Below are positions 18,263-51,435 of a DNA stretch of 64,000 nucleotides, piece after piece. The stretch's first letter is position 1, and every line of letters starts with the position of its first letter. Source of the stretch: an uncultured delta proteobacterium (GTDB lineage Bacteria; Desulfobacterota; Binatia; UBA9968). The stretch spans positions 1 to 64,000 of the forward strand of contig CAWDPO010000010.1 of NCBI GenBank assembly GCA_963804165.1, given 5' to 3'. The notes under the pieces were generated by a model. That model did not search any database and was not told where the DNA came from. It was given only the letters and a program-made list of their open reading frames with translations. The position numbers and the translations under genes were made by a program.

Positions 18263-18323
18263 GTGTGCTGCAACACGGAATGTCCTTTCGGGAGGAAGGC
18301 TACACCCCGAAAATCAACCTTTG

Positions 18324-20847: not shown

Positions 20848-20854
20848 ATTGTGT

Positions 20855-20986: not shown

Positions 20987-21028
20987 TTCACCGAGGCCGT
21001 AAGTCCGGCAGCGTCACGGAGATCGATC

Positions 21029-23443: not shown

Positions 23444-23459
23444 GAGAAGGAGACTCGCC

Positions 23460-24515: not shown

Positions 24516-24590
24516 GCCTTGCGGCAGTTCAATGTTCCAAGTTCAACGTTTAACGTGTTCGATGCCGTCGCGAGTCAAAGGAGAGCAGCT

Positions 24591-25655: not shown

Positions 25656-25662
25656 CTCGAAT

Positions 25663-25777
25663 GGTTCAAGTCGTTCAAAATCGTTCAAGCCCCCACCTCT
25701 TTCCTCCCCCGCGTCGCGGGGGAGGATGAAGGAGGGGGTTGAACGGGGTTGAACGGCTTGAACGATTTGAACCTCTC
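25663..25777. repeat. GTTCAA/TTGAAC palindrome with a nested GC hairpin
   Basis: ggttcaagtcgttcaaaatcgttcaagccccc ... cctcccccgcgtcgcgggggagg ... ggggttgaacggcttgaacgatttgaacc. Confidence 0.82.
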
Positions 25778-25799
25778 ACCAAAAAAATGGAGGCATGAC

Positions 25800-26861
25800 A
25801 TGAAAACAAATGAACTGCGAACGCGGCTGGCCGCATCTGCGGCGCTGTGCGCGTTGGTATTTCTTTTCTCTACCCCCGCCTATTCCCAGACCCCATTCTA
25901 TCAAGGCAAGACGATCACGCTCCTGCACGGCCGAGCTCCCGGCGGATCAGGCGACTATCGTGTGCGCGCCGTGCTGCCTTTCCTGCAAAAATACATTCCC
26001 GGCAATCCAACTTTCATCCACGAGTACATGGACGGCGGCGGCGGGCGCAAAGCTGCCAATCATATTTTCGCTATGACCCGTACGGATGGATTGGTCCTCG
26101 GCAACGTGGGCGGCGGCGTGGTCGCCAACGCAGTACTCGGCGAATCTGGCGTGCAGTACGACCTCGACAAGCTACCCTTCATCGGTTCGCCGTACAGCGC
26201 CACTCACTATGTGCTGGCCACCCGCCGAGAAGCTGGGCTGACGAGTCTAGAGAAACTACGCGCCGCCACGGGGATACGCCTCGGCGCCCAGTCGGTCGGC
26301 CATACCAATTACACCCTCGGCAGAATTTTCGCCGCGCTACTCGGTCTAAAAGACACCAAGTACGTCACCGGTTATTCGATTCCCGAGCGCGACGTCGCTT
26401 TGCTGCGCGGCGAGATCGACGCCATCACCAACTCGGATGACTTCTACGCGCGCAACCCTGAATGGATCGAAAAGAAATTGGTGGATTTCCACGTCGTCAT
26501 GGAGATCCCCAAAGGCGAAAAGCACCCGCTCTTTTCCCGTCTCCCCGAGATCGAAACCTTTGCTAAAACGGACCGGGCCCGCAAGCTGCTGTCGATGTTT
26601 CGTCTCTTCCGGCTTTCCGGATCGCCTTTCATTTTGCCGCCGGTAACCCAGAAGGACCGCGCGGAGATTATCAAAGAGGCGTTGCGAAAATCTTTCAAGG
26701 ATCCTGAGTTCGTCAAGGAATACCGAAAAGTCGTCGGCGAAGATCCCACGCCATTGTTGCCGGAGGAAAACGAGCGCGCCATCCGCGAGCTGCCGCGTGA
26801 TCCGGAGACCATCGAACTGTTCAAGAAATTTGCTGGCGCGGGCGCGTTGCCGGTGCCATAA
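25800..26861 (+). CDS. TctC/Bug-like receptor (copy 8)
   Basis: FYQGKT..HGRAPGGSGD. Confidence 0.9.
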   Translation: MKTNELRTRLAASAALCALVFLFSTPAYSQTPFYQGKTITLLHGRAPGGSGDYRVRAVLPFLQKYIPGNPTFIHEYMDGGGGRKAANHIFAMTRTDGLVLGNVGGGVVANAVLGESGVQYDLDKLPFIGSPYSATHYVLATRREAGLTSLEKLRAATGIRLGAQSVGHTNYTLGRIFAALLGLKDTKYVTGYSIPERDVALLRGEIDAITNSDDFYARNPEWIEKKLVDFHVVMEIPKGEKHPLFSRLPEIETFAKTDRARKLLSMFRLFRLSGSPFILPPVTQKDRAEIIKEALRKSFKDPEFVKEYRKVVGEDPTPLLPEENERAIRELPRDPETIELFKKFAGAGALPVP

Positions 26862-26920
26862 ACCAGGGGGGAATTGAGAGTTCAAGAGGAGCACCTGGGA
26901 AAATGTCAGGAGAATTAACA

Positions 26921-27961
26921 ATGAAACAGGCAGTCAAAGCCGCAATGTGCGCGCTATTATTTTTCGCCACACCGGCGTTCGCCCAGGCGCCGTTCTATCA
27001 AGGCAAAACCGTAACCGTACTCGCCAGTACCGCTCCCGGCGGCACCGGCGACATGCGCGTGAAATCGGTAGTGCCGTTCCTACGCAAATATATTCCGGGC
27101 AGCCCCACGATCATCGTCGAATACATGGACGGCGGCGGCGGACGCAAGGGCGCGAATTATTTGTTTCGCAATGCCAAGCCCGACGGGCTCACCATCGGCG
27201 CCCTGAGCGGCTCGATCGTGGCGTTGCAGCTGATGCGCGAGAGCGGCGTCATGTACGACATCGATAAATTCATTCACTTGGGCTCGCCGGAAAGCACAAC
27301 TCACTATACGATTTACACGAGAAGAGAATTGGGATTGGGGAATATGGACAAGCTGCGCGCCTATCCGGGACTTCGCATCGGCGCCCAGTCGGTCGGACAT
27401 GTGTCCTATATTGCCGGGCGGATGTTTGCCTATTTCTTTGGTTTGAAAGATCCGAAATTTATCGCCGGCTACACCGCTCCGGAAGTAGACGCGGCCTTGA
27501 TGCGCGGCGAGCTGGACGCGAGAGCCAACAACGCGGCGTCAGTGTTAAGGCGTAATCCTGACTGGTTCGACAAAGGCGTGATGAATTTTCATGCCATCTT
27601 GGAAGTTCCCAAGGGAGCGAAACATGGAAAGCTCGGCCACTTGCCTGAGATCGAGAGCTTTGCCAAAACCGACAGAGAGAAAAAGCTGATTACTATGTGG
27701 CGGGTATTTAGAATAGTCGGATCGCCTTACATGTTGCCGCCCGGCACGCCGAAAGACCGCGTCGACATCTTGCAAGACTCCATGCGCAGGGCGCTCAAAG
27801 ACCCGGAGTTCCAGCGGGAATTTCTCAAACTGGTCGGCGATGAGGCGGAACCGCTCATGCCGGAGGAATTGACCAAAGCGATCCGGGAAGCGCCGCGGGA
27901 CCTGGAGGTTGTCGAGTTGCTCAAGACTCTTTCTGGTGCCGACCCATTGCCGGCGCGGTGA
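26921..27961 (+). CDS. TctC/Bug-like receptor (copy 9)
   Basis: FYQGKT..STAPGGTGD; ends PLPAR. Confidence 0.9.
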   Translation: MKQAVKAAMCALLFFATPAFAQAPFYQGKTVTVLASTAPGGTGDMRVKSVVPFLRKYIPGSPTIIVEYMDGGGGRKGANYLFRNAKPDGLTIGALSGSIVALQLMRESGVMYDIDKFIHLGSPESTTHYTIYTRRELGLGNMDKLRAYPGLRIGAQSVGHVSYIAGRMFAYFFGLKDPKFIAGYTAPEVDAALMRGELDARANNAASVLRRNPDWFDKGVMNFHAILEVPKGAKHGKLGHLPEIESFAKTDREKKLITMWRVFRIVGSPYMLPPGTPKDRVDILQDSMRRALKDPEFQREFLKLVGDEAEPLMPEELTKAIREAPRDLEVVELLKTLSGADPLPAR

Positions 27962-28120
27962 ATTCAACGGGTTCAAGTCGTTCAAAAAGTTCGACACGTA
28001 TTTCCGCTCATCCTTGATCCCTCGACAAGCTCGGGACTAAAGGCGCAGTCGAGGGAGCCTGTCCTGAGCGGAGCCGAAGGATCGAAGGATTGAACGTCTT
28101 GAACGGTTTGAACGATTGGA
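27962..28120. repeat. GTTCAA/TTGAAC palindrome with nested CCTGAGC..GCCGAAGG REP-like units
   Basis: gttcaagtcgttcaaaaagttc ... cctgtcctgagcggagccgaagg ... ttgaacgtcttgaacggtttgaac. Confidence 0.72.
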
Positions 28121-28266
28121 GCTGCTCAGTCAGAAACCACTTGCGTCGGGAAATTGAAAGCCATATAAGGGCGCTGCACTGGCAACCTGGTGAGACGGCG
28201 CGAACGATCCTGCGCCGTCGCCGGACGTCGTCAATCTAGGCATTCAAAGAGGCAAAGAGTATCGAA

Positions 28267-29808
28267 ATGGAACCTTCTCTTTTCGGCGCCGCCGTTCAAG
28301 GCTTTCTCAATCTCCTCCAGTTCAAGGTCTTCCTTGCCATGCTCATGGGCGTCAGTATCGGCACCTTTACCGCCGTAGCGCCGCAGGGACTGGGTATGCC
28401 ACTGGTTTACGCGATTGCGCTGCCGATCGTCATAAAGTGGGAGCCCATCACCGGCATCGCTCTTCTCATCGGCGCAAGCTCTGTGAGTGCGATTTGCGCG
28501 GCTTACCTGCCAATCTTGTTTGGCATCCCGGGAGGCTCTGGCTCGCAAGCCACCGTGCTCGACGGTTATCCGATGGGAAAGAAAGGCGAGGGCAGGCGCG
28601 CGCTCGGCGCCTCTTTTATGGCGGGCGGTATGGGGTGTCTGATCGGCACATTTACGCTCGCCGCCGCGATCCCCTTGGCGCGGCCGATCATTTATTTAAT
28701 GGGCTCGCCGGAGCTGTTTGTCGTCATGCTCTGGGGATTGAGCATGGTTGCCGTGCTCGCGGGGCGGCGTCCCATCAAAGGGCTCATCGCTGCCGCATTT
28801 GGATTGCTGCTCGCCACCATCGGCCAGCAAGCACAGAGCGGCGTCATGCGTTTCGTCTTCGATGTACCTTACCTCCTCGATGGCATGTCGATTAGCATCA
28901 TCGCGCTGGCGATGTTCGGCATTCCGTCGGCATTGGACCTAGCGCTCACCAAGCTCGGCGTGGAACAGCAGCCAGTACCGCTCAAGGGTAGTCTATTCGA
29001 CGGTGCCCGAGACGCGTTGCGCGAATGGTGGCTCGTCGTGCGCTGCAGTTTCGTCGGCGTTTGGGTTGGCATCGTCCCTGGACTTGGCTCGCAAGTCGTG
29101 GACTGGCTCGCCTACGGCCACGCGGCGCAAACTTGCAAGGGCGGGAGACAGACCTTTGGTCAGGGGGACGTGCGCGGCGTCATCGCGCCGGAAAGCGCCA
29201 ACGACGCCAAAGACGGCGGCGATCTTGTAACGACATTGATTTTGGGGTTTCCGCAGGGCGTGGTGACGGCACTTTTTATCGTCGCGTTGCTCGCCTGGGG
29301 ATATCTGCCCGGCCCGGAGATGGTGAAGAAAAATCCGGAGATTATTTATAGCGTCGTCTGGCTCCAGGGCATTTCGGGACTCGTCGGGACGCTGATCGGC
29401 TTTACGTTGGCCGCGCAGCTCGCCAAGCTGGCGCAAGTTCGCTACAGCTTCATGGTTCCGGTGATGTTCATCTTCATTCTGATGGGAGCTTTCAGCGTTA
29501 ACCGCGATCCCGCCGACCTGCTCGTTGTCGTCGCCTTTGGCATCTTGGGTTATTTCATGCGGCGCTTCGGTTACCCGCGGCCGGCGATGATCCTCGGCTT
29601 GGTGCTGGGCGATTTGATGGAAAAATATCTTTATCGCTCCGTGGCGAGCTACGGCTTTACCTGGCTCGCCCGGCCGGCGGTAATCGCGCTTTTGATCATG
29701 GCAGGGGCATCCCTGTATTTTACGCTGCGCGGCAGGGTTAAAGCGCGGCGAGAAGCACCTCCCGCAACATTCAGCGGGGCAATCGCGAGGGCCGAAGATG
29801 AAAGCTGA
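28267..29808 (+). CDS. tctA: Tripartite tricarboxylate transporter large subunit TctA
   Basis: Multi-TM; ATVLDGYPM.KKG, GVWVGIVPGLG, GVIAPESANDA, GLVLG..ME. Confidence 0.92.
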   Translation: MEPSLFGAAVQGFLNLLQFKVFLAMLMGVSIGTFTAVAPQGLGMPLVYAIALPIVIKWEPITGIALLIGASSVSAICAAYLPILFGIPGGSGSQATVLDGYPMGKKGEGRRALGASFMAGGMGCLIGTFTLAAAIPLARPIIYLMGSPELFVVMLWGLSMVAVLAGRRPIKGLIAAAFGLLLATIGQQAQSGVMRFVFDVPYLLDGMSISIIALAMFGIPSALDLALTKLGVEQQPVPLKGSLFDGARDALREWWLVVRCSFVGVWVGIVPGLGSQVVDWLAYGHAAQTCKGGRQTFGQGDVRGVIAPESANDAKDGGDLVTTLILGFPQGVVTALFIVALLAWGYLPGPEMVKKNPEIIYSVVWLQGISGLVGTLIGFTLAAQLAKLAQVRYSFMVPVMFIFILMGAFSVNRDPADLLVVVAFGILGYFMRRFGYPRPAMILGLVLGDLMEKYLYRSVASYGFTWLARPAVIALLIMAGASLYFTLRGRVKARREAPPATFSGAIARAEDES

Positions 29809-30268
29809 TTTCACGATTTTCTTTTTGATCATTTTCGCCGTCGCGGCGTTCGTCGGGTGGGACTGGCCCAACATCGCTAAGATCATGCCCGTCTACGTCG
29901 CGGCCATTCCGGGCCTCGTGCTCGTGCTCGTGCAACTGTACCGAGAGGCCACCGGCTGGGAGCAACATCGAAGCAGCGCATCCGGCGGCATCGACATGGA
30001 CGAGAGCGGCGCCGTCCAACTAGATCAGCAAACCGAGCTGCGGCGCACGCTGGGGTACTTCGGCTGGTTCATCGGCGGCGCGGTCGGCATCTGGCTTCTC
30101 GGGTTGGTGATCAGCCTGCCTCTACTGGTATTTCTTTACGGTCTCGTTGAGGGCAAGGAGAAATGGTTCACCGCGCTGATCATGGCGGCGTGCACCTACG
30201 CGCTCGTTTGGGGCCTGTTTGAATACATGTTGGAAACCCGATGGCCGTCGGGTCTGCTGTTCGGCTGA
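29798..30268 (+). CDS. tctB: Tripartite tricarboxylate transporter small subunit TctB
   Basis: About 4 TM, C-terminal LFEYML...WPSGLL; overlaps tctA. Confidence 0.8.
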   Translation: MKADFTIFFLIIFAVAAFVGWDWPNIAKIMPVYVAAIPGLVLVLVQLYREATGWEQHRSSASGGIDMDESGAVQLDQQTELRRTLGYFGWFIGGAVGIWLLGLVISLPLLVFLYGLVEGKEKWFTALIMAACTYALVWGLFEYMLETRWPSGLLFG

Positions 30269-30307
30269 CGCGCACCTCGGCAAATTTTTTTCAAAGTGCG
30301 GGTGAAT

Positions 30308-31363
30308 ATGCAGTTGAGAAAAATGCCCTGGGAAATTTTCTTACTATCGTTGGCTTTCTGTCTGGTCACGAGCCCCGCCCTCGCCCAAGTCCCCTACTTC
30401 CAGAACAAAACAATTAAGATTATCCGCGGCGGCGAGCCCGGCGGCACCGGCGACTTGCAGGCACGGGCGTTGATTCCAGCTCTAAAAAAACATATACCCG
30501 GCCAGCCCACCATCATCGTCGAAAATATGCCCGGCGCCGCCGGCCGCAAGGCGGTCAACTACATTTATTCGACAGCGAAACCCGACGGGCTTGCCATCGG
30601 CGCGGTCGGCGCGGGATTAGTCGCGGGGCCGATTCTCGGCCTCGCTGGATCCCAGTACGATATCGACAAGCTCATTTATCTCGGCTCGACCGAAAGCGGC
30701 GATCCCTACGTCTTCGTCAGCCGCAAGGAATCCGGCCTCGATAGTCTCGATAAACTTCGTGCTGCCACGAGGCTGAGAATCGGCGCACAGGCAGTCGGCC
30801 ATCCGATCTTCATCAGCGGACGCATGTTCGCCTATTTACTAGGGTTGAAAGAACCTCGGATGGTCGTCGGCTACGGCGGCCCGGAAATCGATATCGCCCT
30901 TGCGAAGGGCGAAGTGGATGTCCGCGCCAACGGCGCGGACTCGATCTTCCAACGCAGCCGCGAAGGTCTGGAAATAAACCAACTCCACTTTCACGCCTCG
31001 ATCACGATTCCAAAAGGAAATTTCATTCAAGGGTTGCCCAAAGCCCCGGATCTCGACACTTTCGCCAAAAACGATGGGGAGCGTAAGCTGATCGAGCTGT
31101 TTCGCGCCTTTCTTTATCCGCGCTGGCCTTATATCGTGCCGCCGGCAACGCCCAAAGAAGTTGTGTCAATCTTGCGCAGCGCCATGACGAAGGCTCTCAA
31201 GGATCCCGAATTTCACAAAGATTTCAAAAAGCTCATGACCACAGAGCCGACGCCGCTCACCGGTGAACAGATGGAAACAGCGATACGCGAATTGCCGCGC
31301 GATCCGGAAACCGTCTCGCTCTATAAAAAAATGGCCGAGGACGTGCCGCTGCCGCCGCGATGA
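30308..31363 (+). CDS. TctC/Bug-like receptor (copy 10)
   Basis: YFQNKT..RGGEPGGTGD, NMPGAAG; ends PLPPR. Confidence 0.9.
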   Translation: MQLRKMPWEIFLLSLAFCLVTSPALAQVPYFQNKTIKIIRGGEPGGTGDLQARALIPALKKHIPGQPTIIVENMPGAAGRKAVNYIYSTAKPDGLAIGAVGAGLVAGPILGLAGSQYDIDKLIYLGSTESGDPYVFVSRKESGLDSLDKLRAATRLRIGAQAVGHPIFISGRMFAYLLGLKEPRMVVGYGGPEIDIALAKGEVDVRANGADSIFQRSREGLEINQLHFHASITIPKGNFIQGLPKAPDLDTFAKNDGERKLIELFRAFLYPRWPYIVPPATPKEVVSILRSAMTKALKDPEFHKDFKKLMTTEPTPLTGEQMETAIRELPRDPETVSLYKKMAEDVPLPPR

Positions 31364-31369
31364 ATTGAA

Positions 31370-31575
31370 AGAGTTCCAATCGTTCCAATCGTTCCAAACG
31401 TTCAAGCCGTTCAAATCGTCGGAAAGGCGCGTAGGTCACACACACGAGAGAGCTAAAACATCCGAGCTTCGAACGGTTTGAACGGAGCATGGTTCGATGG
31501 CTCACCATGCACGGCACGTATTTCCGCTCATCCTGAGACTTGTCGAAGGATTGAACGGCTTGAAGGCTTTGAACC
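31370..31575. repeat. Composite GTTCAA/TTGAAC palindrome
   Basis: gttccaatcgttccaatcgttccaaacgttcaagccgttcaaa ... ttgaacggcttgaaggctttgaacc. Confidence 0.72.
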
Positions 31576-31604
31576 TCTGGTTGAAGAAGAAAGGGAGGAT
31601 CGAT

Positions 31605-32666
31605 ATGAAGTTAATCAAATACGCGTTGTTTTGCATCTCGTAGCTACATTTATGCGTCAATATCTGACATTCCCCATTCATTCGCCCAGACTCCTTTCTA
31701 CCAAGGCAAAACCTCACCATCGTCCAGGGCACCGAAGCCGGCGGCAGCTCGGACATGATGACAAACGGCCATGCTTAGCCAACTAAAGAAGCATATTCCC
31801 GGTGAGCCGACGGTCGTATCGGAATACATGCCCGGCAGCGGCGGTATCAAAAGCCGCCAACCATATCTTCAAGAATGCTCAAGCCCGACGGTCTCACCAT
31901 GGGCCGCGTCGGCGGCGGCCTGATCGCCAACGCCGTCCTCGGCGAAAAGGGCGTGCTCTACGATCTGAACAAGTTTATTTATTTGGGCTCGCCGCACAGC
32001 ACTTATCACTGGGTCTTCATCACGCGCAAAGAAGCCGGGCTTAAAAGTATCGAAACCCTACGCTCGGCAAGTGGAATTAGAATCGGCGCGCAAACCGTCG
32101 GCCACTCGAACTATTTCGTCGGCCGCCTGTTTGCCCTGTTGATCGGATTTAAAGATCCTAAAATGGTCGTGGGCTACTCCGGCAACGAGCTCGACCTCGC
32201 CCTCATGCGCGGCGAGATCGACGGCAGGATAAACAATCCGGACACGCTGACGATACGGAACGCGGAATGGCTCGCCAAAGGTATGATCGACATCCACGCG
32301 ATCATGGAAGTGCCGCGCGGCCTCAAACAAGCGGGCTTCGATCGTTTGCCTGAAGTTGAAGAGTTCGCCAAATCGGAGCGTGAAAAAAAGCTATTGGCTA
32401 TGGTTCGCACCTTCCGCCAGATCGGCACGCCGTCTTTCTTTCCGCCTGGCACGCCGGCGGAACCGGTAAAAATCCTCCGCGCCGCCACGGTGAAAATGTA
32501 CAGCGACCCGGACTTTCACAAAGAGTATAAGAAACTGGTCGGCGAGGAGCCGACACCGCTATTGGGTGAAGACATGGAACGCGCCCTCAAAGAATTACCG
32601 CGCGATCCAGAGACGGTCGATCTTTTCAAAAAGCTCAACGCCGCGGGACCGTTGCCGCCGCGGTGA
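31605..32666 (+). CDS. TctC/Bug-like receptor (copy 11; several frameshifts in the 5' part)
   Basis: Very similar to copy 12 (GSPHSTYHWVF, KLNAAGPLPPR). Confidence 0.86.
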
Positions 32667-32845
32667 TCAGGGCGAGTTTCAAGCCGTTCAAGTCGTTTAA
32701 CCGACAGAATATTCGACACACTGCTAATTGAACGTTGAACAGTCCGAAGTTTTCAGACGGTTTGGACGAACCCCGGACTCGATCCGGAGGGTTGAACGGC
32801 TTGAACGATTTGAACCTCTCATCCAGAGAAAAAGGAGGGTTCGAG

Positions 32846-33910
32846 ATGAAATTGAATAGACTGCGACTTCAGCTCACCGCCCAAGCCATCTTGAGCGCGT
32901 CGTTGATTTTTCTCTCCACCAACGCCTTCTCCCAGACGCCTTTCTATCAAGGCAAAACCATCACGATCATTCAGGGCACGGAACCGGGCGGCAGCTCGGA
33001 CATGATGACCAAGGCGATGCTGCCACATTTGAAAAAACATATTCCCGGCGAGCCCACCATCGTTTCGGAATACATGGGCGGCAGCGGCGGCATCAAGGCG
33101 GCCAATCACATTTTTAGAAACGCGCGCCCCGACGGCTTGACCATCGGCCGCATCGGCGGCGGTCTGGTGGCGAATGCGGCGCTCGGCGAAAAAGGCGTGC
33201 TCTACGATTTGAACAAATTCATTTACCTCGGCTCGCCGCACAGTACCTATCATTGGGTCTTCTTCACCAGGCGGGAAGCGAATTTGAGAAATATCGAAGC
33301 GCTGCGCACGACGCCGGGAATACGCATCGGCGCCCAGTCGGTGGGGCATTCCATTTATTTCGTCGGCCGGCTGTTTGCTTATCTGATCGGCTTTAAAGAT
33401 CCCAAGTTCGTCGTCGGTTATTCGGGCACCGAGCTCGACTTGGCGGTCACCCGCGGCGAGGCGGACGGTCGGGTCAATAACGCCGACACGATGCTGTCGC
33501 GCAGCGCCGACCTGCTGGCAAAGAAAGCCCTCGATCTGCACGTCATCATGGAAGTACCGAAAGGTTTGAAACAACCGGGTTTCGATGGCCTGCCGGAGAT
33601 CGAGGAATTTGCCAAGTCGGACAAAGAACGCAAATTGCTCGCAATGGTCCGGACATTCAGACAAGTCGGCACGCCGTCGATGCTGCCGCCGGGAACACCG
33701 CCGGAGCAAGTAAAGATCCTACGTACCGCCATGGCGAAGATGTACAGCGACCCGGAGTTTCACAAGGATTACCGGAAGCTCGTCGGCGAAGAACCGACAC
33801 CTATTCTAGGTGAAGAAATGGAGCGCGGTATTAAGGATCTACCGCGCGATCCCGAGCTCGTAGATCTATTCAAAAAACTCAACGCCGCCGGACCGCTGCC
33901 GGCGAGGTGA
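32846..33910 (+). CDS. TctC/Bug-like receptor (copy 12)
   Basis: FYQGKT..QGTEPGGSSD; ends GPLPAR; ATG after aaggaggg. Confidence 0.9.
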   Translation: MKLNRLRLQLTAQAILSASLIFLSTNAFSQTPFYQGKTITIIQGTEPGGSSDMMTKAMLPHLKKHIPGEPTIVSEYMGGSGGIKAANHIFRNARPDGLTIGRIGGGLVANAALGEKGVLYDLNKFIYLGSPHSTYHWVFFTRREANLRNIEALRTTPGIRIGAQSVGHSIYFVGRLFAYLIGFKDPKFVVGYSGTELDLAVTRGEADGRVNNADTMLSRSADLLAKKALDLHVIMEVPKGLKQPGFDGLPEIEEFAKSDKERKLLAMVRTFRQVGTPSMLPPGTPPEQVKILRTAMAKMYSDPEFHKDYRKLVGEEPTPILGEEMERGIKDLPRDPELVDLFKKLNAAGPLPAR

Positions 33911-33986
33911 TCTAATATTTACCTCGTTCAAAAAGTTCAAGCCGTCTGAACGGGCAGGGCCCCGTGCCTGCCCCTATCCCGCCTAG

Positions 33987-35474
33987 CAGCCCGTGGCAAA
34001 AGAGCTCACGAGCGGGAATTTGATTCGCTCCACTTTGGTAGACATGTGAAAGGCGATCGTCGTGTTATCGGTCGATACCAGCTTCGAAGACGCTCCCAAA
34101 GCGTTTCTGAGGACCTTACGAATGACCATACAACTGCAAAAAGCGCCGCCAGGCGGCCCTGCAGGCTGCGCGGCGTGCCCACACCGAACAGTGTTCGCAT
34201 CAACAATCCAAGATTCAACGCCGCGGCATGTAGCAGTATGCGTTTGAGGATGTTCTGATGACCCCGCAGGTAGACACGTCGCATCGCTCCAGTTTCATAC
34301 AGATGGGCAAACGGCCGCTCGAGGAGTTCCCCCCGCTGACGGAGCAGCCGCTTGCCGCGTACGCCGCTAATCCGTCGGCGGTTGCGATATACGGCGTTGC
34401 GCGCCTCGGGGTTATCCTTCCAGTTTCGCCGCCCGCGATCGGGCTCCGAAATGTAGCTGCGCACGCCCACCGCTTCCAGGGCCACCAGCGCTTGATTGCT
34501 ATGATACCCCTTGTCGGCGACGACCTCTTTTGGCCCATCGCTCTCAGGGATGACCGCCTCGATCTGCTCGGCGGCCTCAATCAGCGTCTTGATACTCGTG
34601 GTGGGATCCCCTTGATCGGCGCCCTGCACGGTCACGCCCACCACCGCCCCCGTCTCCAGATCGACCGCGTGCTCGGCCTTGTGCGCCAAGTGCGTGCGTC
34701 CATCCTTCATCTTGGTGATCTTGGCGTCCGGGTCATGGGGATGGGTCCAGTCATCGTTGGAGCCCTTGTTCTTGCGCTTGCGGTCAAGGCGCGCCAAGTC
34801 CTCGCGTGTGGGCGTCTCAATGCCGGAGGCCTTGGCCAGCTGGGTGAGAAACTCCTGATAGTTTTCACCCGTATCGCGTCGCACGATACTGCGCAGCGCC
34901 GCATTGGCTTCGAGCGTGGTCGCGTCCATGCCGATCGTTTTGCCCTTGACCAAGCCCGCTTCAGCGAGCTGATTGAGAATCCAAGTGAAAACCTCCCGGT
35001 GCGTCTCCAAGTCGATCAACCGACGTGTGCGCGAAATCGTCGAATGGTCGGGCGGTGCCTCCGGCAACTCCAAATCCAAAAATTGGCGCAACGCAAACGA
35101 ATCGGCGGCGCGCCAGGCTATCGCGCGCTCGGAATCGAGCCCTTCAAAGTACCCGACAACGAGCAGGCGAAAATAGCGACCCGGTGCCAGACTCGGCCGG
35201 CCCATCCGCTCGGCGTAAAACGGCGCGCACAACTTCTCCACATGCGCATCGAACCCGGCTTTATCCAAAATCTGATTGATCCGCTCATAGAATGGATGTG
35301 CGGCCGTCGTCGGCAGATCGCTCGTGGCGATCCATATCGTCGATTGCCTCAACCTCTGCTTACGTTTTCCCATCGCCATGCACTCGACTGTACTATGCCT
35401 TAGCTGGTGTGACCAATGATCCAATCAATTTTCTGTTATTTGTTGAAGCCAACACGGACTTTCACCACGGACTG
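33987..35474 (-). mobile_element. IS1182/IS5-like insertion sequence
   Basis: TIRs cagcccgtggcaaaag / ctttcaccacggactg; CTAG duplicated at 33983-33986 and 35475-35478. Confidence 0.88.
34006..35379 (-). CDS. DDE transposase (DUF772-type N-terminus)
   Basis: GRPSLAP, PDHSTISRTR, DATTLEANA, VADKGYHS, R.ELLERPFAH. Confidence 0.9.
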   Translation of the reverse strand: MAMGKRKQRLRQSTIWIATSDLPTTAAHPFYERINQILDKAGFDAHVEKLCAPFYAERMGRPSLAPGRYFRLLVVGYFEGLDSERAIAWRAADSFALRQFLDLELPEAPPDHSTISRTRRLIDLETHREVFTWILNQLAEAGLVKGKTIGMDATTLEANAALRSIVRRDTGENYQEFLTQLAKASGIETPTREDLARLDRKRKNKGSNDDWTHPHDPDAKITKMKDGRTHLAHKAEHAVDLETGAVVGVTVQGADQGDPTTSIKTLIEAAEQIEAVIPESDGPKEVVADKGYHSNQALVALEAVGVRSYISEPDRGRRNWKDNPEARNAVYRNRRRISGVRGKRLLRQRGELLERPFAHLYETGAMRRVYLRGHQNILKRILLHAAALNLGLLMRTLFGVGTPRSLQGRLAALFAVVWSFVRSSETLWERLRSWYRPITRRSPFTCLPKWSESNSRS

Positions 35475-35492
35475 CTAGAGCCCGAATCGGCA

Positions 35493-35561
35493 CTTACCTT
35501 GCCGGCGGCCTTCGTCGATATTAATATCGCGAAAGGCAGATCTGTATATTACTGGTTGAAC
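35493..35561 (+). promoter_or_regulatory. Putative attI/cassette-promoter-like site, copy 1
   Basis: 60 bp matching 40859-40918 at 51/60 (hand count); palindrome cgatattaatatcg, then ctgtatattac, then a GTTGAAC core. Confidence 0.5.
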
Positions 35562-35713
35562 TAAACCGCTGCGCGGTGGCGGATGCCATGCCAGCGGTAG
35601 TGCTTTTGTCCGCTGCTGTTTTGCGCTTCATCTCTCGTAGCTTTGAGTCCCTCCCAGATTTCTGTTTCGCGTGATAGCGTCACTCCCAAATTTGAATCCA
35701 AGGAGGATTTTGT

Positions 35714-36550
35714 ATGGGAGCACTACGCACGAGGATGGTCGAGGAGATGAAGTTGAGAAACTTCTCGCCGCGCACGCAGCAGTCGTATTTGGCGGCGATG
35801 ATAGGATTGGTCAAGCATTATCGCCGGTCGCCGGACCAACTGACGCAAGACGACATTCGCGCTTATCTACTGCATCTGGAAAAACGCGGGTTGTCGCCGA
35901 GTTCGCGCAACGTGGCAATCTCGGGGATGAAGTTCTTTTACCACCAGATGTTGGGCTGGAACGACAAGCAATTGTTTATTCCACCGAGAAAGCGAAGTTG
36001 GCAACTGCCCGAAGTGTTAGGCCAGAAGGAAGTCGAACGGTTGCTGTTGGCCGCGGCAAAACAGCGCGACCGATGTCTGTTAATGACGGCCTACGCCACG
36101 GGGTTGCGGGTCAGTGAATTGGTCCGGCTCAAAGTCAGCGCCATTGACAGCGAACGGATGATGGTGCGGGTGGAGCAAGGCAAGGGGAGAAAGGACCGCT
36201 ACACGATTTTGTCTCTCCATCTGCTCACCGAGCTGCGCTCCTATTGGAAAGAGCATCGCTCGCCGATTTACCTGTTCCCCAACCGCAAGGGCGGTCCGAT
36301 ATCGATCGACTACGCCCAGAGGATCTACAATCTTGCCAAGGTGAAGGCCGGCATCCAAAAAGGCCACGGCATCCATACACTCAGACACTGTTTTGCTACC
36401 CATCTATTGGAAGCCGGGGTGGATCTGAGAACCATTCAGACGCTATTGGGCCATAACTCCATGGCCAGTACCGAGCGTTATTTGCAGATTCGCCAGCACA
36501 GGATCACCACCACGGCCAATCCCTTAGATCTGCTGCGACTGCCAAACTGA
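35714..36550 (+). CDS. Tyrosine recombinase (XerD/integron-integrase-like, no IntI-specific insertion)
   Basis: TGLRVSE, GKGRKDR, HTLRHCFATH, LLGH, TERY catalytic residues; 278 aa. Confidence 0.92.
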   Translation: MGALRTRMVEEMKLRNFSPRTQQSYLAAMIGLVKHYRRSPDQLTQDDIRAYLLHLEKRGLSPSSRNVAISGMKFFYHQMLGWNDKQLFIPPRKRSWQLPEVLGQKEVERLLLAAAKQRDRCLLMTAYATGLRVSELVRLKVSAIDSERMMVRVEQGKGRKDRYTILSLHLLTELRSYWKEHRSPIYLFPNRKGGPISIDYAQRIYNLAKVKAGIQKGHGIHTLRHCFATHLLEAGVDLRTIQTLLGHNSMASTERYLQIRQHRITTTANPLDLLRLPN

Positions 36551-36565
36551 GAAGGCAGATTCTCG

Positions 36566-37742
36566 GTGCTGTCGCGCGCGGATGGGCGGGCAGCAGGAGA
36601 GAAACAGGGGCGCCCCGAGCTGGCCGATGTTTTTCGCCAGTACGGGGAGAACTACCAACGAACGCATCGCTTGTCGGCCTCTCAGCAAAAAGTGATGCAG
36701 GCCGTCTCGGTCTGCCGGACTCAACAGCTAGGCGGGCATCTGGATCGATGCGACTCATGCGGTTTTGAGCGCCCGGCTTATAACTCCTGTCGTAACCGCC
36801 ACTGTCCTAAATGCCAGTCCTTGGCCAAAGCCAAGTGGTTGGAGAAACAAACCGCTGAGCTTTTGCCGGTGGGATACTTCCATCTGGTCTTCACGTTACC
36901 GCACGAGCTCAATGGTCTGATCCTCGCCCACAAAAAGATTGGTTTGAGCTCTGCTCTTTAAAGCCGTCAGCGAAACGCTCCTTGAGTTTGGCCGCTCGCG
37001 TCTTAAGGGAACGGTGGGGGTCATCGCCGTCCTGCATACCTGGGATCAAACGCTCAAAGACCATTTTCATCTGCACTGTCTCATCCCCGCCGGCGCTCTG
37101 TCCTTCGATCACAGCCGCTGGATCTCTGCGCGAAAAAACTTTCTGTTTCCCGTCAAAGCTTTGAGCCGGGTCTTTCGTGGAAAGTTTCTTGATCGGTTAC
37201 AGCAGGCCGGTGATAGAGGAAAAGTCGAAGAAATCAACGCTGTCATCAAAGCCTTACGCCAAAAAGATTGGAACGTCTACGCGAAAAAGCCCTTCGGTTC
37301 TCCACAGAAAGTTCTCGATTACCTCGGCCGCTACACTCACCGCGTCGCTCTCTCCAATGACCGAATCCTCAAAGTCGAAAACGGCCAGGTCTCTTTGAGC
37401 TATAGAGATCGAAAAGATGGGGATAGAAAAAAAACAGTCACCCTTGAAGCCCAGGAATTTATCCGCCGCTTCATGCTTCACGTGCTTCCCGATGGCTTCA
37501 TGCGCATCCGTCACCTCGGGTTTCTGGCCAACCGCTCTAAGAAACAGGCCTTGGCTCAATGCCGCAAACTTCTCGATCTTGATCCGGCTTTGCCCCAGCG
37601 TCCCAACGAATCAGCCAAAGAATTGCTGCTAAAAATTAGCGGTTTCGATCTCGCTCGCTGCCCTTGCTGCTGTGAGGGAATGATGATTATCGTAGGCGAC
37701 CTACCAGCATTGTCGATCTCGCCTCGTGTGGATTCTTCATGA
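36566..37742 (+). CDS. IS91-family rolling-circle (Y2/HUH) transposase; frameshift near 36955
   Basis: Zn motif CDSCG..YNSCRNRHCPKCQ, HLVFTLP, HUH motif HFHLH, YLGRY, FIRRFMLHVLP. Confidence 0.9.
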
Positions 37743-37990
37743 ACAAGGCTCCATCGCATCTCAGCTGGTGTGACTCTCGATCTGCCGACATTGGCGCGGG
37801 TGTGTTTGGCTCTGCCCAAAACCGGCTCTGAAGCCGCATGGCAGTGTCGCAATCGGCGAAAAGCCATCGGCGCTGATCTCAACCAGCATCCGCTGGCCGT
37901 ACTATCGCTACCGCGTGCGCCATGCTCGGCCGGCACTGCGTCCAGGTTACAATCCCCATAGCCGAAGCAGCACAGCGGCTCCGCGGTTTA

Positions 37991-38085
37991 GTCCAACCAC
38001 GTTTTATCCCCTTAGCGATACTCCGGCGCTATCCAAGCAACTTGATTGCCGCCAACCTTTAGGGATAAAACGCTATACGTTAGAC
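37991..38085 (+). other. attC-like site at the right end of the recombinase/HUH element
   Basis: GTCCAAC (RYYYAAC) ... cgttttatccc / gggataaaacg inverted repeat ... GTTAGAC (GTTRRRY). Confidence 0.7.
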
Positions 38086-38104
38086 CGACAGAGATACTTG
38101 GAAG

Positions 38105-38506
38105 ATGCAACATCAACGTACTGAAATCGGAAGAGCATGGTTCGCAATATGTTGGTTCGCCACTTGGGGATTGTTTCAGGGATTTGCAGTCTTCTCGGTG
38201 CTCAATGGAACCTGGGAGCGACCAGCCGCATTTCCGGCCGGCGCATACGAGTCGCTGATCTATCCAGATATGTTCTTCATTCCGCTCTACTTGTTGGCGG
38301 CCACTCTGCTGTTTCGGCGCCACTGGCTCGGGAGCGTTCTGGCCTTTGTGGCGGGCGGTGGAATCGTCTACGCCATGATCTATCTCTTGGCCCTTTCTGG
38401 TTTCTCAGGCGCGGTTAATCTGACCGCTGACGGGATATTCTTGGCCTGCACGTTTGTCTCGCTGTGGCAGGTGGGGTACCGCACCAGTCTGCGGCACGCG
38501 GTCTAA
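38105..38506 (+). CDS. Cassette-borne hypothetical membrane protein (about 4 TM)
   Basis: Starts about 20 bp after GTTAGAC; stop codon lies inside GTCTAAC. Confidence 0.75.
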   Translation: MQHQRTEIGRAWFAICWFATWGLFQGFAVFSVLNGTWERPAAFPAGAYESLIYPDMFFIPLYLLAATLLFRRHWLGSVLAFVAGGGIVYAMIYLLALSGFSGAVNLTADGIFLACTFVSLWQVGYRTSLRHAV

Positions 38507-38602
38507 CACGCCGCTGCAGCCGACGAGCGGCGCGGCTGGTATCGGGCTGACTCAAGGGTCTTGGGTGATCGCCGCTCGCGGCTGAGCGGCATGGCGTTAG
38601 GG
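38501..38602 (+). other. attC recombination site
   Basis: GTCTAACacgccgctgcagccgacgagcggcg ... cgccgctcgcggctgagcggcatggcGTTAGGG; imperfect palindrome with extrahelical bases. Confidence 0.93.
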
Positions 38603-38632: not shown

Positions 38633-39109
38633 ATGTCATTTCCTGCCCCGTTCATCATTCGTCAGCTTGCGTCCGACGACGTGGCACTGATGGAAGCCAT
38701 GTTGACGACCTTCGGCAATGCGTTCGACGAGGTGGAGGCTTATGGCGCGGCTCGGCCAAGTAAAGCCTATCTCGAGCGCTTGCTTGGCAGTGATTATTTT
38801 ATCGCGCTTGCAGCATTGAAGAATGACTCGGTTGTCGGCGGCATCGCCGCTTACGAACTCCATAAGTTCGAGCAGGAGCGCAGTGAAATCTACATTTATG
38901 ATTTGGCCGTCGCGGCAGCGCACCGGCGCGAGGGCATCGCGAGGCGGAGCGAACTCAAGAAGATTGCTGTAGTGCGCGGAGCCCATGTCATCTTCGTGCA
39001 AGCGGACATCGGCGATGCACCTGCCATCGAGTTATATACGAAGCTAGGAGCTCGCGAAGAAGTGCTGCACTTCGATATCGCAGTTCCGGGTGGCAATGAC
39101 GGTACATAA
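38633..39109 (+). CDS. aac(3)-I: AAC(3)-I-family aminoglycoside N-acetyltransferase (GNAT)
   Basis: AAYELHKFEQERSEIYIYDLAV...HRREGIA and VIFVQAD.GD.PAI.LYTKLG.REEVLHFDI match AAC(3)-I; about 3 aa missing after GIA. Confidence 0.85.
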   Translation: MSFPAPFIIRQLASDDVALMEAMLTTFGNAFDEVEAYGAARPSKAYLERLLGSDYFIALAALKNDSVVGGIAAYELHKFEQERSEIYIYDLAVAAAHRREGIARRSELKKIAVVRGAHVIFVQADIGDAPAIELYTKLGAREEVLHFDIAVPGGNDGT

Positions 39110-39168
39110 ACGTGGTTGCAGGTGACTTCCAGCCTGCGACCGGCCCGCACCTGAACCACGGGATAAGT
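39104..39168 (+). other. Degenerate attC site
   Basis: cgtggtt(g)caggtg / cacctgaaccacg arms with one extrahelical G; core sites degenerate (ACATAAAC, GATAAGT). Confidence 0.65.
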
Positions 39169-39171
39169 GCC

Positions 39172-39565
39172 ATGACCACCTACCGAGGTTCCTGCCATTG
39201 CGGAAAAGTCCGCTTCGAAGCGGTCGAGGCTGAGATTGACCATGTTCGAGTCGTGCGACTGCTCCATCTGTCGCAGGCGAGGTGCGCTCAATTATCGCGT
39301 GGCCAAAGAAAATTTTCGTTTGCTGACGCCTTGGCAGGATCTCACCCTGTATCAATGGGGCTCTCTAACTGCAAAGGACTATTTCTGTCCGACATGCGGT
39401 ATTTTGTCTTTCAGACGACCGAGCGATCCAACACCGGCGGAACTATCTGAAGGCGTAGAGCCCTTCGAAGGATGGGCTATCAACCTAAGATGCCTAGAAG
39501 GCATCGATCTGGACTCAATCCCTGTCAAGCGAATCGACGGCAGTAGAATCCGGCTTGGTCTCTAG
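39172..39565 (+). CDS. GFA/CENP-V family Zn protein (frameshift near 39250)
   Basis: YRGSCHCGKV, CDCSICRRRG, FCPTCGI, INLRCL. Confidence 0.85.
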
Positions 39566-39726
39566 AGGCCGTCGCCCACGCGCCAAAATAATTAGCCATT
39601 TTTTCCGCGTCGGGCAGACGGTTACGACCTTGTCGTGCTTTCTGAATTGATGGAACCAAAAGATACAGATCGCTGCGTCGCCTGAGCCCACAAAACTTAG
39701 TATAGTTCGTCAGGTAGGTTGATTTC

Positions 39727-40528
39727 ATGAGTATCTCTGGAGGATACGATGAATACGCGTTCATCGCCGATCTCTACGACCACGTCGTGCCTTACCGTGC
39801 TCGGGCGGATATCGCCTTCTTCGTCGAAGCAGCGAGGAAAGCTGGGAGTCCAGTTCTCGAAGTGGGTTGCGGGACCGGACGCATCCTGATTCCGACCGCT
39901 CGCGCCGGCGTTGATATCGTGGGTCTCGATCTTTCTCCGCACATGCTTGCAGTGTGCCGCCGGCGGCTCCGGGACGAACCGGCACGAGTCGAATCCAGGG
40001 CGCGCCTAATACAGGCAGACATGCGATCGTTCGACCTCGGAAACACTTTCAATTTGGTGACAGTTCCGTTTCGTCCCTTCCATCTTGACTACATTGGACG
40101 ATCAGTTCGCCTGTCTCGTGAACATTCGTCGCCACTTGGTCGATGGAGGTCGCTTGATCCTTGACCTGTTCAATCCGTCTCTCGATTTACTGGTGAATGC
40201 GGCGGTTGGAGAAGAATTCGGTGACGAACCGGAGTTCTCCATGCCGGATGATCGTCGTGTGATCCGGCGCCACAAGACCGTCGCCAGCGATCGCTTTAGT
40301 CAAGTCAACCAGGTTGAGCTGATCTATTACGTCACTCATCCCGACGGCCGCGAAGAACGTTTGGTCCACTCTTTCCCTATGAGATATCTGTTCAGATTTG
40401 AAGCAGAACATCTGTTAGCTCGCTGTGGATTTGAGGTTGAGCATGTTTATGCGGATTACGACAAGAATTCGTACGGGTCGAAATATCCAGGCGAACTAAT
40501 ATTTGTCGCAAAACATGCCAGGACCTGA
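39727..40528 (+). CDS. Class I SAM-dependent methyltransferase (frameshift near 40080)
   Basis: VLEVGCGTGR, GLDLSPHML, QADMRSF. Confidence 0.87.
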
Positions 40529-40551
40529 CGGTACAGCCGCAGCCTAACATC

Positions 40552-40670
40552 CGGTATCAAAGACCTGCAGCGCGATCCGGAGATCATCGATCTTTTCAAG
40601 AAACCCAATGCCGCGGGACCGCTGCCGGCGAGGTGATCTAGATTTAACTCGTTCAAAAAGTTCAAGCCGT
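40552..40670 (+). pseudogene. Duplicate of the 3' end of TctC copy 12 plus its downstream repeat (33826-33945)
   Basis: GIKDLQRDPEIIDLFKKPNAAGPLPAR* followed by tcta..ttta.ctcgttcaaaaagttcaagccgt at both sites. Confidence 0.88.
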
Positions 40671-46332: not shown

Positions 46333-46549
46333 AAGAAACATTGACCACGAAGACCTGCAATGTTTAACAGGCTCTGAAGATTCGGAATGCTTCGACATGC
46401 TCCGCATGAACGGAAACGCTAGTATCCTCCCTCCGTTCGTCCAGCGCCGTCGAAGGACTCCTAACCATCTGTTAGACTTCTCAGCTTCGTGCTCCTCGTG
46501 ACCTTTGTGGTTAAATCGAATTGTTCGAGTTGAGTCAGCGGAGCCGGCA

Positions 46550-50899: not shown

Positions 50900-51435
50900 G
50901 CGCGACTCGTTGCCATGGATAAAAGTGTTCTGTGCTGTGACGCCGAACTATTAAGTGAGCCGCCGCAGGAGGCGACAAATGCCGATTGCCTATCTCGACC
51001 TCTCAAATTACAGACGAGTCACAATATCGTTTACTTGCGCAAAGCATCAAGAATGATTCTGACCGCCAAAAACAGCGCTGATAGCGACCTATCCCCCTAC
51101 TGCCCGCAGCCCATTTCGCCTGCTAGACCAGGGTCAAGCTCGGTAATCGCCGTAGCATTGAACTGATCGACGCTACAAATCGATATCGGTGCCATCCAGA
51201 GCGCTCTGAGAAATATGGGTGAGGCGGATCTGTGCGCGCCGGATCCGCCGATATATATTTATTGACCGACCATTTTACCGACACACTGACAACTGCCCGT
51301 TTCGAGTTCGCGGTTAGACCGAAAAAATGGGACCGGAAAGGGGCAGGCAACTCATTGCCGAAATACCTGGAAATCAGTGGCCAGTCTCCAACCTTTGCGT
51401 TCTTTGCGGTCAAAAATCCTTTATAGACGTACTTT

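Follow-up and report, generated by a model that had tools for sequence, protein, structure and literature searches.

Structure of the element

We analyzed a 64,000-nucleotide (nt) stretch of DNA from an uncultured delta proteobacterium (Binatia, UBA9968; GenBank assembly GCA_963804165.1, contig CAWDPO010000010.1, positions 1 to 64,000 of the forward strand), which is referred to here as the window. Positions 35555-38078 of its + strand hold an element beginning with GTTGAACTAAACCGC, in which a tyrosine recombinase gene is followed by an IS91-type Y2/HUH transposase gene, an inverted copy of the first 15 nt, a hairpin, the sequence CTATAC and then GTTAGAC (Table 1). The element lies between a hairpin unit, located downstream of the last complete member of a TctC-like tandem array, and a short decayed cluster of integron-type cassettes. 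Comparison with its relatives suggests a defective insertion sequence (IS) of the ISAzo26-type group, the ends of which imitate the recombination site (attC) of an integron cassette. An earlier, sequence-only reading of this DNA had placed GTTGAAC at 35555, GTCCAAC at 37991-37997 and GTTAGAC at 38079-38085, all of which are found there, and had proposed a discrete mobile module between them. The module and its left boundary are supported by six copies in the genome and by the same ends in 34 of 81 loci; its right end, however, lies at 38078 rather than 38085; bases 38082-38085 differ between copies (AGAC, AGCT, GGGC) and are part of the flank. The alternative offered in that reading, that GAAC at 35558 is simply an IS91 target tetramer, did not hold: GAAC (or GGAC) is part of the conserved left end, and in the canonical IS91 copy used for comparison the tetramer follows the right end.

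The transposase gene of the window copy is split by a frameshift between its two domains, a defect not mentioned in the earlier reading, and each fragment exceeds the cut-off of the IS91 transposase model NF033538 (125 bits). On C5, on C23 and in the second of the C41 copies, the transposase is encoded by a single open frame of 395-427 codons, and the frame is broken in the window copy and two other genome copies (C with a number denotes contigs of the window's own assembly, G000, and L with a number the related loci that were fetched). An intact transposase, as expected of an autonomous copy, is lacking in the window copy.

The recombinase carries a phage-integrase catalytic domain and a SAM-like N-terminal domain (Pfam). 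It scored under every NCBIfam cut-off, including XerA (197 bits versus a cut-off of 220), XerD (173 versus 330), XerC (172 versus 335) and the integron integrase model TIGR02249 (161 versus 265), on which the true integron integrases (IntI) of neighboring loci score 293-480 bits. When solved structures were ranked for this protein, archaeal XerA came first, followed by IntI4 and XerD. Residues R132, K157, H221, R224, H247 and Y256 are invariant across five copies and, by our own assignment, would represent the catalytic R-K-H-R-H-Y set. The alignment to TIGR02249 falls into profile positions 5-181 and 241-314; as positions 182-240 are absent from it, the recombinase lacks the insert that characterizes IntI.

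A phylogenetic tree was built from 77 proteins, comprising 42 IS91-linked recombinases (every second of 82 full-length sequences), 20 IntI, 11 XerD and 4 XerC, with the XerD and XerC sequences taken from relatives of the window's genome. The IS91-linked recombinases formed one group (SH-like approximate likelihood-ratio test, SH-aLRT, 91), and together with IntI they were separated from XerD and XerC with a support of 100 in a quick tree search that had Xer-only outsiders and gave a long-branch warning. One IntI (from G045) branched beside the IS91-linked proteins with no support. The recombinase of the element thus appears to be a sister of integron integrases and not IntI itself, in agreement with the proposal, made from the sequence alone, of a non-IntI recombinase. 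In a preprint (10.1101/542381), IS91-borne recombinases are described as the closest homologs of IntI, lacking the IntI insert; the searched passages of the printed version (PMC8138268) do not mention IS91.

Distribution of the gene pair and its place in the IS91 family

We scanned one genome per species for relatives of the element and obtained 597 candidate stretches, 552 of which were confirmed; 80 loci were kept and fetched. They were found in Binatia-labelled metagenome-assembled genomes (MAGs), Desulfobacterota, Nitrospirota, Acidobacteriota, Proteobacteria, Chloroflexota, Bacteroidota and Planctomycetota. An IS91 transposase directly followed the recombinase in 78 of the 80 loci (one of the other two had no room for it and one had no transposase), and the two genes stay together down to ~41% identity. 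A recombinase with an IS91-type partner was also detected on Clostridium and Dinoroseobacter plasmids. The plasmid copy of Aromatoleum aromaticum EbN1 consists of a tyrosine recombinase and a protein annotated in RefSeq as 'IS91-like element ISAzo26 family transposase'; its left end is GTTGGACTAAACCGC, with an inverted copy, GCGGTTCAGTCCAAC, downstream of the transposase gene and then a hairpin. The window element and the ISAzo26 type have in common the gene pair, the gene order, the left end GTTGRACTAAACCGC, the subterminal inverted copy and the hairpin, the ends having been judged on the RefSeq-annotated Aromatoleum copy and not on the end definitions of ISfinder. The two copies differ in that the window recombinase is only ~46% identical to that of Aromatoleum, the window transposase is frameshifted, and the base triplet past the right end is ATT in Aromatoleum and GTT in the window. 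We take ISShvi3, ISSod25 and ISWz1 to be further ISfinder names in this group. By sequence comparison, then, the window element appears to be a defective member of a catalogued group, the ISAzo26-type elements of the IS91 family, and of this identity, as well as of the site preference described below, we are highly confident.

Canonical rolling-circle members of the family (IS91, IS801, IS1294, ISCR), which have a single HUH Y2 transposase, resemble the element in several respects: the transposase belongs to the same family, the right terminus beyond its gene is of the CTAT type, a short fixed sequence flanks the right end, and the target is not duplicated. The transposase of the canonical IS91 copy used for comparison is ~25% identical, and a recombinase gene, ACTAAACCGC repeats and the extra hairpin are all absent from this copy. 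The sequence at its right end is ..CCTATCGAT/GAAC, with the same CTAT core as in the element but flanked by GAAC instead of GTT. As both are missing from it, the recombinase and the special ends go together.

Searches of the open full-text literature found no mechanistic study of the tyrosine recombinase of this IS91 subgroup. Descriptions of an attC-like bottom-strand fold, a GTTRRRY-type target and repeated adjacency to intI were likewise not found in open full text, to which the search was confined; they may have been published in subscription journals, ISfinder/TnPedia or supplements. PMC5737581 and PMC9345347 provide general IS91 background, and PMC3414803 does not mention IS91.

Conserved folding of the element ends

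Positions 35555-35569 and 37983-37997 are complementary at 14 of 15 positions, as had been noted before for the RYYYAAC-box region and the first bases of the element, and a repeat search extended this pairing to 22 nt with 86% identity (35553-35574 and 37978-37999). With up to 2 mismatches allowed, the terminal 15-mer matched just these two sites in the window, compared with a mean of 0.11 matches in shuffled sequences (1 of 100 shuffles reached 2). The GTCCAAC box can pair at 6 of 7 positions either with GTTAGAC or with the element's own GTTGAAC. The right repeat is followed by 2 nt, a 12-bp stem with a ~50-nt loop, CTATAC and GTTAGAC. Taken alone, the 95-nt hairpin folds within chance expectation (DNA fold z-score of -1.7 for the top strand and -2.0 for the bottom strand); the neighboring attC (38501-38602, GTCTAAC...GTTAGGG, 420 nt further on) folds strongly (-3.5 and -4.4). 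We regard the hairpin of the element as real because it is conserved in other copies, not from its single-sequence fold.

Both repeats (at most 3 mismatches, 2.0-2.9 kb apart) were located in 34 of 81 loci from many phyla. Among the 28 distinct pairs of inverted repeats, compensatory changes occurred at positions 1, 2, 8 and 11. The G-C pair at position 1 was replaced by A-T in 3 pairs and by T-A in 1, the T-A pair at position 8 by C-G in 3 and by G-C in 1, and the A-T pair at position 11 by G-C in 3. Top-strand A.C mismatches were present at positions 5, 9 and 11 (14, 13 and 6 cases, respectively); each of these corresponds to a bottom-strand G.T pair, so that pairing on that strand is kept at these positions in 27-28 of the 28 cases. 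The inner stem (7-20 bp) was found in all 35 distinct right ends, although its sequence took many different forms; in our tally its top strand contained 43 A.C versus 14 G.T pairs, and the bottom-strand hairpin was the more stable one in 28 of the 35 ends, with a mean difference of 2.2 kcal/mol. Covariation thus maintains both the pairing of the ends and the hairpin, and the bottom strand pairs better than the top strand. A further block upstream of the right repeat, CAATCCCCATAGCC, is present by eye in all copies of the genome and in the Aromatoleum and Dinoroseobacter copies, and is diverged in the Clostridium copy.

The layout of R boxes, spacer, second stem and variable loop, with a preference for the bottom strand, is shared with attC sites, as are the pairing of RYYYAAC with GTTRRRY boxes and the orientation relative to the genes. 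attC sites are defined by L boxes with 5-nt spacers and by extrahelical bases; a second stem is present in the element, with spacers of 0-4 and 4-8 nt.

Solo right ends without genes, consisting of the repeat, the hairpin, CTATAC and GTTAG, were detected at C17:199338-199471, C23:264222-264271 and C6:76846, and one metagenome contig (run X2) joins ~16 nt of the left end to the last 130 nt, which hints at miniature derivatives. In a copy from a Binatia-labelled MAG (L018:2620-2670), the last ~23 nt of the right end are directly duplicated (..TTAGGGATAAAACGCTATACGTT twice).

Table 1. Features of the element and of its surroundings, in window coordinates
Feature	Position	Strand	Evidence or remarks
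IS1182-family transposase gene (unrelated IS, context)	34006..35424	-	PF05598 and PF01609; NF033551 179.5 bits, under cut-off
Left flank/target, a repeated hairpin unit (..gatattaatatc..tctgtatattactg)	35493..35554	+	Abuts the element and lies outside it
Left end (left inverted repeat, IRL), GTTGAACTAAACCGCTGCGCGG	35555..35576	+	Start of all six genome copies; pairs with 37983-37997
Tyrosine recombinase gene, 278 aa, Xer/IntI-like, apparently intact	35714..36550	+	PF00589 135 bits; PF13495 64 bits
IS91-type transposase, N-terminal fragment, zinc-binding domain	36566..36961	+	PF14319 118 bits; NF033538 148.7 bits, profile positions 1-108
IS91-type transposase, C-terminal fragment, Y2 HUH catalytic domain, other frame	37014..37742	+	PF04986 205.6 bits; NF033538 264.4 bits, profile positions 135-354
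CAATCCCCATAGCC, a conserved block preceding the right inverted repeat	37950..37963	+	By-eye comparison of copies
Right subterminal inverted repeat (IRR), GCGGTTTAGTCCAAC; last 7 nt form a RYYYAAC-type box	37983..37997	+	Pairing and covariation with the left end
Inner hairpin, arms CGTTTTATCCC.. / ..GGGATAAAACG, variable loop	38000..38072	+	Stem in 35/35 distinct right ends
Right terminus CTATAC, last conserved bases of the element	38073..38078	+	Comparison of copies
Boundary box GTTAGAC, target core and start of the next cassette	38079..38085	+	Right-flank consensus of 31 insertions; metagenome contig X3
Integron-type cassette: open reading frame (ORF) 38105-38506 (133 aa, no family) and canonical-looking attC 38501-38602	38086..38602	+	R'' box GTCTAAC complements 38079-38085 in 7/7
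AAC(3)-I family acetyltransferase gene (downstream context)	38633..39109	+	NF033083 213 bits versus a cut-off of 200

Copies in the genome and their target sites

In addition to the window copy, its assembly (7.5 Mb in 46 contigs, 81% complete) holds three full-length copies that are 77-84% identical, two partial copies (on C9 and on C37, the latter cut by the contig end) and more distant relatives. Six genome copies start with GTTGAACTAAACCGCTGCGCGG and end with ...GGGATAAAACGCTATAC, followed by GTTAG or GTTGG. Their flanks represent three unrelated contexts and contain no target duplication. The element ends are joined to other flanks in soil-metagenome contigs, which came from four runs of four studies and which, rather than reads, constitute the metagenome evidence used here. 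RNA runs contained a fraction of 0.05-0.07 of the sequence words.

Two repeated units were found as targets. The first, '...tctgtatattactg/GTT', carries an element in the window and on C37, and unoccupied copies of it lie at three sites (C10:40859-40918, C5:22845-22904 and C30:126711-126775), where GTTATAC, GTTAGCT or GTTGGGC is followed by unrelated sequence; the hairpin at an unoccupied unit folds with a z-score of -6.35. The second, '...ggctcacttaata/GTT', carries an element on C41 and C9, and four unoccupied copies of it were found. One of these (C15:25997, then GTTAGGC) heads an array of four attC-like sites, the first R'' box of which is GCCTAAC, and in L019 the same unit lies 150 nt past the intI gene. 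In both units the left part is constant and the sequence past GTT varies, as at a recombination site. We also considered the left-flank unit at 35493-35554 as a canonical attC and rejected it, its GTT box being unpaired with any upstream RYYYAAC box. Another rejected candidate was L021, whose best segment is 100% identical and which might have been a near-identical copy that had moved: its DNA is 88.8% identical, with an intact transposase and a frameshifted recombinase, so nothing follows from it on movement after the frameshift of the window copy.

Among 31 independent insertions, the consensus of the right flank was G (26), T (26), T (31), A (18) or G (7), G (16), V, and C (19) or T (7), with an exact match to GTTRRRY in 11 of them. 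In outline, the right flank is the integron core GTTRRRY. A strong hairpin in the left flank (-11 kcal/mol or lower within 45 nt) was present in 7 of the 31 insertions compared with 21 of 856 control windows also preceding GTT. The overall shift in left-flank folding was modest (mean -6.5 versus -5.0 kcal/mol, one-sided Mann-Whitney p 0.03), with no strong hairpin in 24 of the 31.

In several lineages (L032, L045, L094 and two copies on C23), the IRR ends in T instead of C and ATT is present both at the left end and in the right flank; the left end and the right repeat thus change in step with the trinucleotide. In five betaproteobacterial copies, the middle base of the junction varies on both sides and the IRR is constant. 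Neither a simple model with a single cleavage position nor any model with an identical core fitted the junction trinucleotides, from which we draw no conclusion. The C23 copies belong to a second family in this genome (C23:251600-254300 and 259500-262200, also on C24 and C30), which has ATTGGAC-type ends and an ATT right flank. These copies are flanked by what look like the left repeat and the right repeat of a further related element (GGATTGAACTGAA ... TTCAGTTCAATCC), which suggests that they inserted into a relic or miniature element.

Association with integrons

Four complete elements lie directly beside a true intI gene that scores above the TIGR02249 cut-off of 265 bits. The gene is divergent to the element in L054 (479.9 bits, 474 nt from the left end) and in L040 (292.8 bits, truncated gene, 224 nt), and has the same orientation in L019 (462.4 bits, 198 nt) and G045/L137 (461 bits, 221 nt). 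From 1-2 intI genes per genome of 3-5 Mb, we roughly estimate that fewer than 0.1 of the 80 loci would be expected within 1 kb of intI by chance. A cassette in register 3' of the element was detected in four loci, with the next R'' box matching the boundary box at 7/7 positions in the window, L054 and L040 and at 6/7 and 7/7 in L035. For the window, this bears out the registration predicted from the sequence alone, as GTCTAAC (38501-38507) is the exact complement of GTTAGAC. On its right side, the window element is in register with the cassette at 38086-38602, and on its left side lies the hairpin unit, with no attC. The element was thus inserted at the 5' edge of a cassette, made up of ORF 38105-38506 and its attC, in a decayed cluster without intI; its supposed position at the head of an array is correct as regards this in-register cassette, but our heuristic found only one clear attC-like site. 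The reconstructed empty site was attC-like in L021, where it is inside an array, and in L065.

No intI was found in the window's assembly (7.5 Mb, 81% complete). In a sample of 151 genomes of the phylum, intI was present in 57 and recombinase relatives in 12, four of the latter being weak matches unchecked for a transposase. Five of the 12 had an intI match, compared with 57/151 overall, and no association between intI and the element was evident in this sample. As the other seven had no intI match, the presence of the element is independent of that of an integron; this fits the autonomy that had been proposed, namely mobility without intI.

Two further loci with intI deserve mention. In a Chloroflexia-labelled MAG (L070:3236-5310), a true intI (448 bits) is divergent from a relative of the recombinase that has no IS91 transposase behind it. 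In L040 (4360-4395), where the element lies beside intI, its left flank is ..AGAAAACAAA/GTT, which resembles what we take to be the end of attI1 of class 1 integrons (..AAAACAAAG/TT).

Head-to-tail junctions and a possible mechanism

The sequence-only reading had also predicted a junction of the circle type. In a soil-metagenome contig (run X1), the last 14 nt of the element directly precede base 35555 (...ATAAAACGCTATAC/GTTGAAC...), and a Saprospiraceae MAG (L068:4416-9300) contains three head-to-tail copies of a related element with a period of 2406 nt. The predicted junction therefore exists in nature, in contigs that look the same for a circle and for a tandem pair. The bottom strand of the natural L068 junction folds into an outer box stem of 7-8 bp, a 4-nt bulge and an inner stem (-28.2 kcal/mol, z-score -5.7). 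In another contig (X3), the cassette start at 38079 is located behind a different upstream sequence.

We propose that the HUH transposase would nick the bottom strand at CTATAC/GTT and peel off a single-stranded copy; the nick is placed at the CTATAC end because oriIS of the IS91 family lies downstream of the transposase gene, according to PMC5737581. The ends of the displaced strand would anneal and the strand would close. The closed junction would fold into an attC-like site with two stems: the R boxes would form the first (GTTCAAC/GTTGGAC), and the second, separated from it by an asymmetric bulge, would carry the variable loop. The element's recombinase, or IntI where it is present, could carry out recombination between this fold and a GTTRRRY-type target, exchanging single strands and leaving the resolution to replication, and the outcome would be insertion in one orientation without target duplication. 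A crossover between G and TT and the building of arrays by the element, both suggested in the sequence-only reading, are conjectural.

Such a system would resemble several known ones. With integrons the element shares, in addition to the fold, insertion at the GTT core of attI/attC-type sites, including the first position beside intI, and a recombinase that groups with IntI. It differs from an integron cassette by its size of 2.5 kb with two genes of its own, its asymmetric spacers, its multiple copies and its location mostly outside arrays, and its recombinase differs from IntI in scoring under the cut-off and lacking profile positions 182-240. IS1111-attC insertion sequences and group IIC-attC introns, which have a DEDD transposase or a reverse transcriptase, insert inside attC. 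These also home to integron sites, whereas the element inserts at the crossover point, in cassette orientation, and has an attC-like end of its own. The existence of both attC-targeting groups is documented in PMC9229058, and that of single-strand integration by Xer recombinases, namely of CTX phage into dif, in PMC3442271. A folded single-strand substrate, a strand exchange resolved by replication, hairpin ends and a short target matching the element are likenesses to CTX/Xer and IS200/IS605, although no dependence on the host Xer is implied for the element. IS200/IS605 are HUH elements with a Y1 enzyme and no recombinase partner.

Weighing of alternative explanations

The explanation as a whole, a defective ISAzo26-type IS with ends that imitate an integron cassette site and with the mechanism outlined above, is in our view probable. 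Its critical part, the making of the integration junction by the recombinase and not by the HUH enzyme, is close to an even question, and we lean slightly against it. A number of observations weigh on the opposite side. The assignment of any step to either enzyme comes from sequence comparison, and a CTAT-ended terminus, the absence of target duplication and tandem copies are what IS91-type rolling-circle transposition alone gives. The IntI insert serves to read extrahelical bases, and the recombinase is devoid of it. The bulge is asymmetric, its two sides measuring 0-4 nt and 4-8 nt, compared with 5 and 5 in the neighboring attC. By eye, left and right junction trinucleotides differ in 12 of 36 insertions, which fits neither the recombinase model nor one with the HUH enzyme alone in a simple way. 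The X1 junction is one contig with a 14-nt overhang, in which circle and tandem pair look alike, and the grouping with IntI was obtained in a quick search with only XerC/XerD as outsiders and a long-branch warning. In our tests, ~8 of 31 insertions had an integron context and ~23 had no recognizable one. Homologs had been expected to possess attC-like ends and cassette neighbors; the ends are indeed conserved, four elements are beside intI and four have an in-register cassette, but these ~23 insertions outside integron contexts do not fit. The attC calls themselves were made with a home-made heuristic and not with the model of IntegronFinder, and the counts are rough: 300 hits were obtained in 7.5 Mb on both strands, and a first, stricter version missed the clear site at 38501.

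Much of this would be accommodated if the element were an ordinary IS91-type rolling-circle IS, in which the HUH enzyme does all cutting and joining. The CTATAC end would then be oriIS, the GTTGAAC end would be terIS, and the target would be a GTTR-type tetramer. The recombinase would have a side job, such as the resolution of tandem copies or cointegrates produced by rolling-circle read-through, and the integron neighborhood would merely reflect a liking for GTT behind single-stranded hairpins. The CTAT core at the right terminus, as in the canonical IS91 copy (where GAAC follows), the lack of target duplication and the tandem copies in L068 agree with this, the bottom-strand bias is expected of a displaced strand that starts downstream of the transposase gene, and most insertions are outside integrons. 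However, the ACTAAACCGC repeats and the extra hairpin co-occur with the recombinase and are both missing from the canonical IS91 copy, the gene pair is retained down to ~41% identity, the flank bias spans 7 positions and not 4, and the recombinase is a probable sister of IntI. The four elements at the first-cassette position beside intI are also more specific than GTT after a hairpin would predict. We consider an element moved by the HUH enzyme alone a rather unlikely, though serious, alternative. The opposite view, a passive integron cassette with the two genes as cargo, a true attC at the right end and movement by IntI alone, finds some basis in the R'' and R' boxes in register with the next cassette and in the relatives at the first-cassette position next to intI. 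Moreover, in both PMC9229058 and PMC12772301, IS91-like elements with attC sites at their end are read as possible cassettes; the latter mentions attC sites called at the end of ISCR28, with data not shown there. Yet six or more copies are present in a genome in which no intI was found (81% completeness), 7 of 12 relative-bearing genomes of the phylum sample had no intI match, most insertions are outside arrays, the box spacing is unlike that of attC, and across phyla the recombinase and transposase genes are inherited along with the ends. Such a cassette is therefore very improbable. It is hardly credible that the attC resemblance is a functionless chance feature of a dead IS, situated in its untranslated tail. 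A single sequence does fold only weakly (z-scores -1.7 and -2.0) and the transposase of the window copy is broken, but the structure is conserved with covariation in 35/35 right ends and 28 inverted-repeat pairs from many phyla, which already contradicts this idea.

Returning to the favored explanation, the comparison unites hints that had been scattered into a testable picture, in which the bottom strand has a conserved attC-like fold, the target has the integron core, and elements are repeatedly located at attI next to intI. Should the recombinase act on the fold, cassette-like mobility would be possible without an integron, such elements could seed or shuffle cassette clusters in genomes lacking intI, and the origin of attC/IntI would become approachable. 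If it does not, the window holds one more decayed IS copy beside a small cassette remnant with an AAC(3)-I-family gene. A more far-reaching idea, which we put forward tentatively and think doubtful, is that ISAzo26-type elements may be self-mobilizing cassettes, in which the HUH enzyme provides a single-stranded circle and the IntI-sister recombinase acts on the folded junction with attI, attC or GTTRRRY look-alikes. In that case, a two-enzyme transposon and the integron would share one recombination system by descent, the attC/IntI pair might derive from such an element or the reverse, and the long-unexplained 'accessory integrase' of this IS91 subgroup would be its integrase.

Neighborhood of the element in the window

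The upstream neighbor of the element is an IS1182/IS5-type transposase gene on the minus strand and not intI. It belongs to an IS1182-type element at ~33975-35478 in the same intergenic region, with inverted ends recognized by eye (..CTAGCAGCCCGTGG / CCACGGACTGCTAG..); stretches of 29-30 nt from the end of this element recur at 100% identity on C34 and C23. Further upstream (14475-33914), at least 12 diverged paralogs are arranged in tandem and repeat every ~1.1-1.3 kb; one of them gave a weak match to TctC (tripartite tricarboxylate receptor).

Downstream, the decayed cluster consists of the ORF with its attC, the AAC(3)-I-family gene, two frameshifted ORFs and a lone GCCTAAC box at 40544. 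Our heuristic scans found no clear attC after the AAC(3)-I gene (38633-39109), an aminoglycoside N-acetyltransferase gene located here in a genome of soil type. The two apparently frameshifted genes occupy 39112-40551 and comprise an ORF with no family and a SAM-methyltransferase gene split into 39727-40164 and 40085-40528. The lone box abuts an 89-nt 3' fragment of a further TctC-like paralog (40552-40640, 84% identical to 33826-33914) and looks like a truncated attC; a second, unoccupied hairpin unit directly follows this fragment.

Other attC-like sites were detected at some distance. An attC-like site on the minus strand of the window (46362-46477, GTCTAAC...GTTAAAC) and an unoccupied '..ggctcacttaata/GTTCGGC' unit on the same strand, 4.5 kb upstream of it (~50949-50970), may form another small cassette cluster. 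Elsewhere in the assembly, where searches gave no integron integrase, there are clusters of four (C15:25997-32020) and six (C34:25378-30507) attC-like sites, and the C15 cluster is headed by a '..cacttaata/GTTAGGC' unit.

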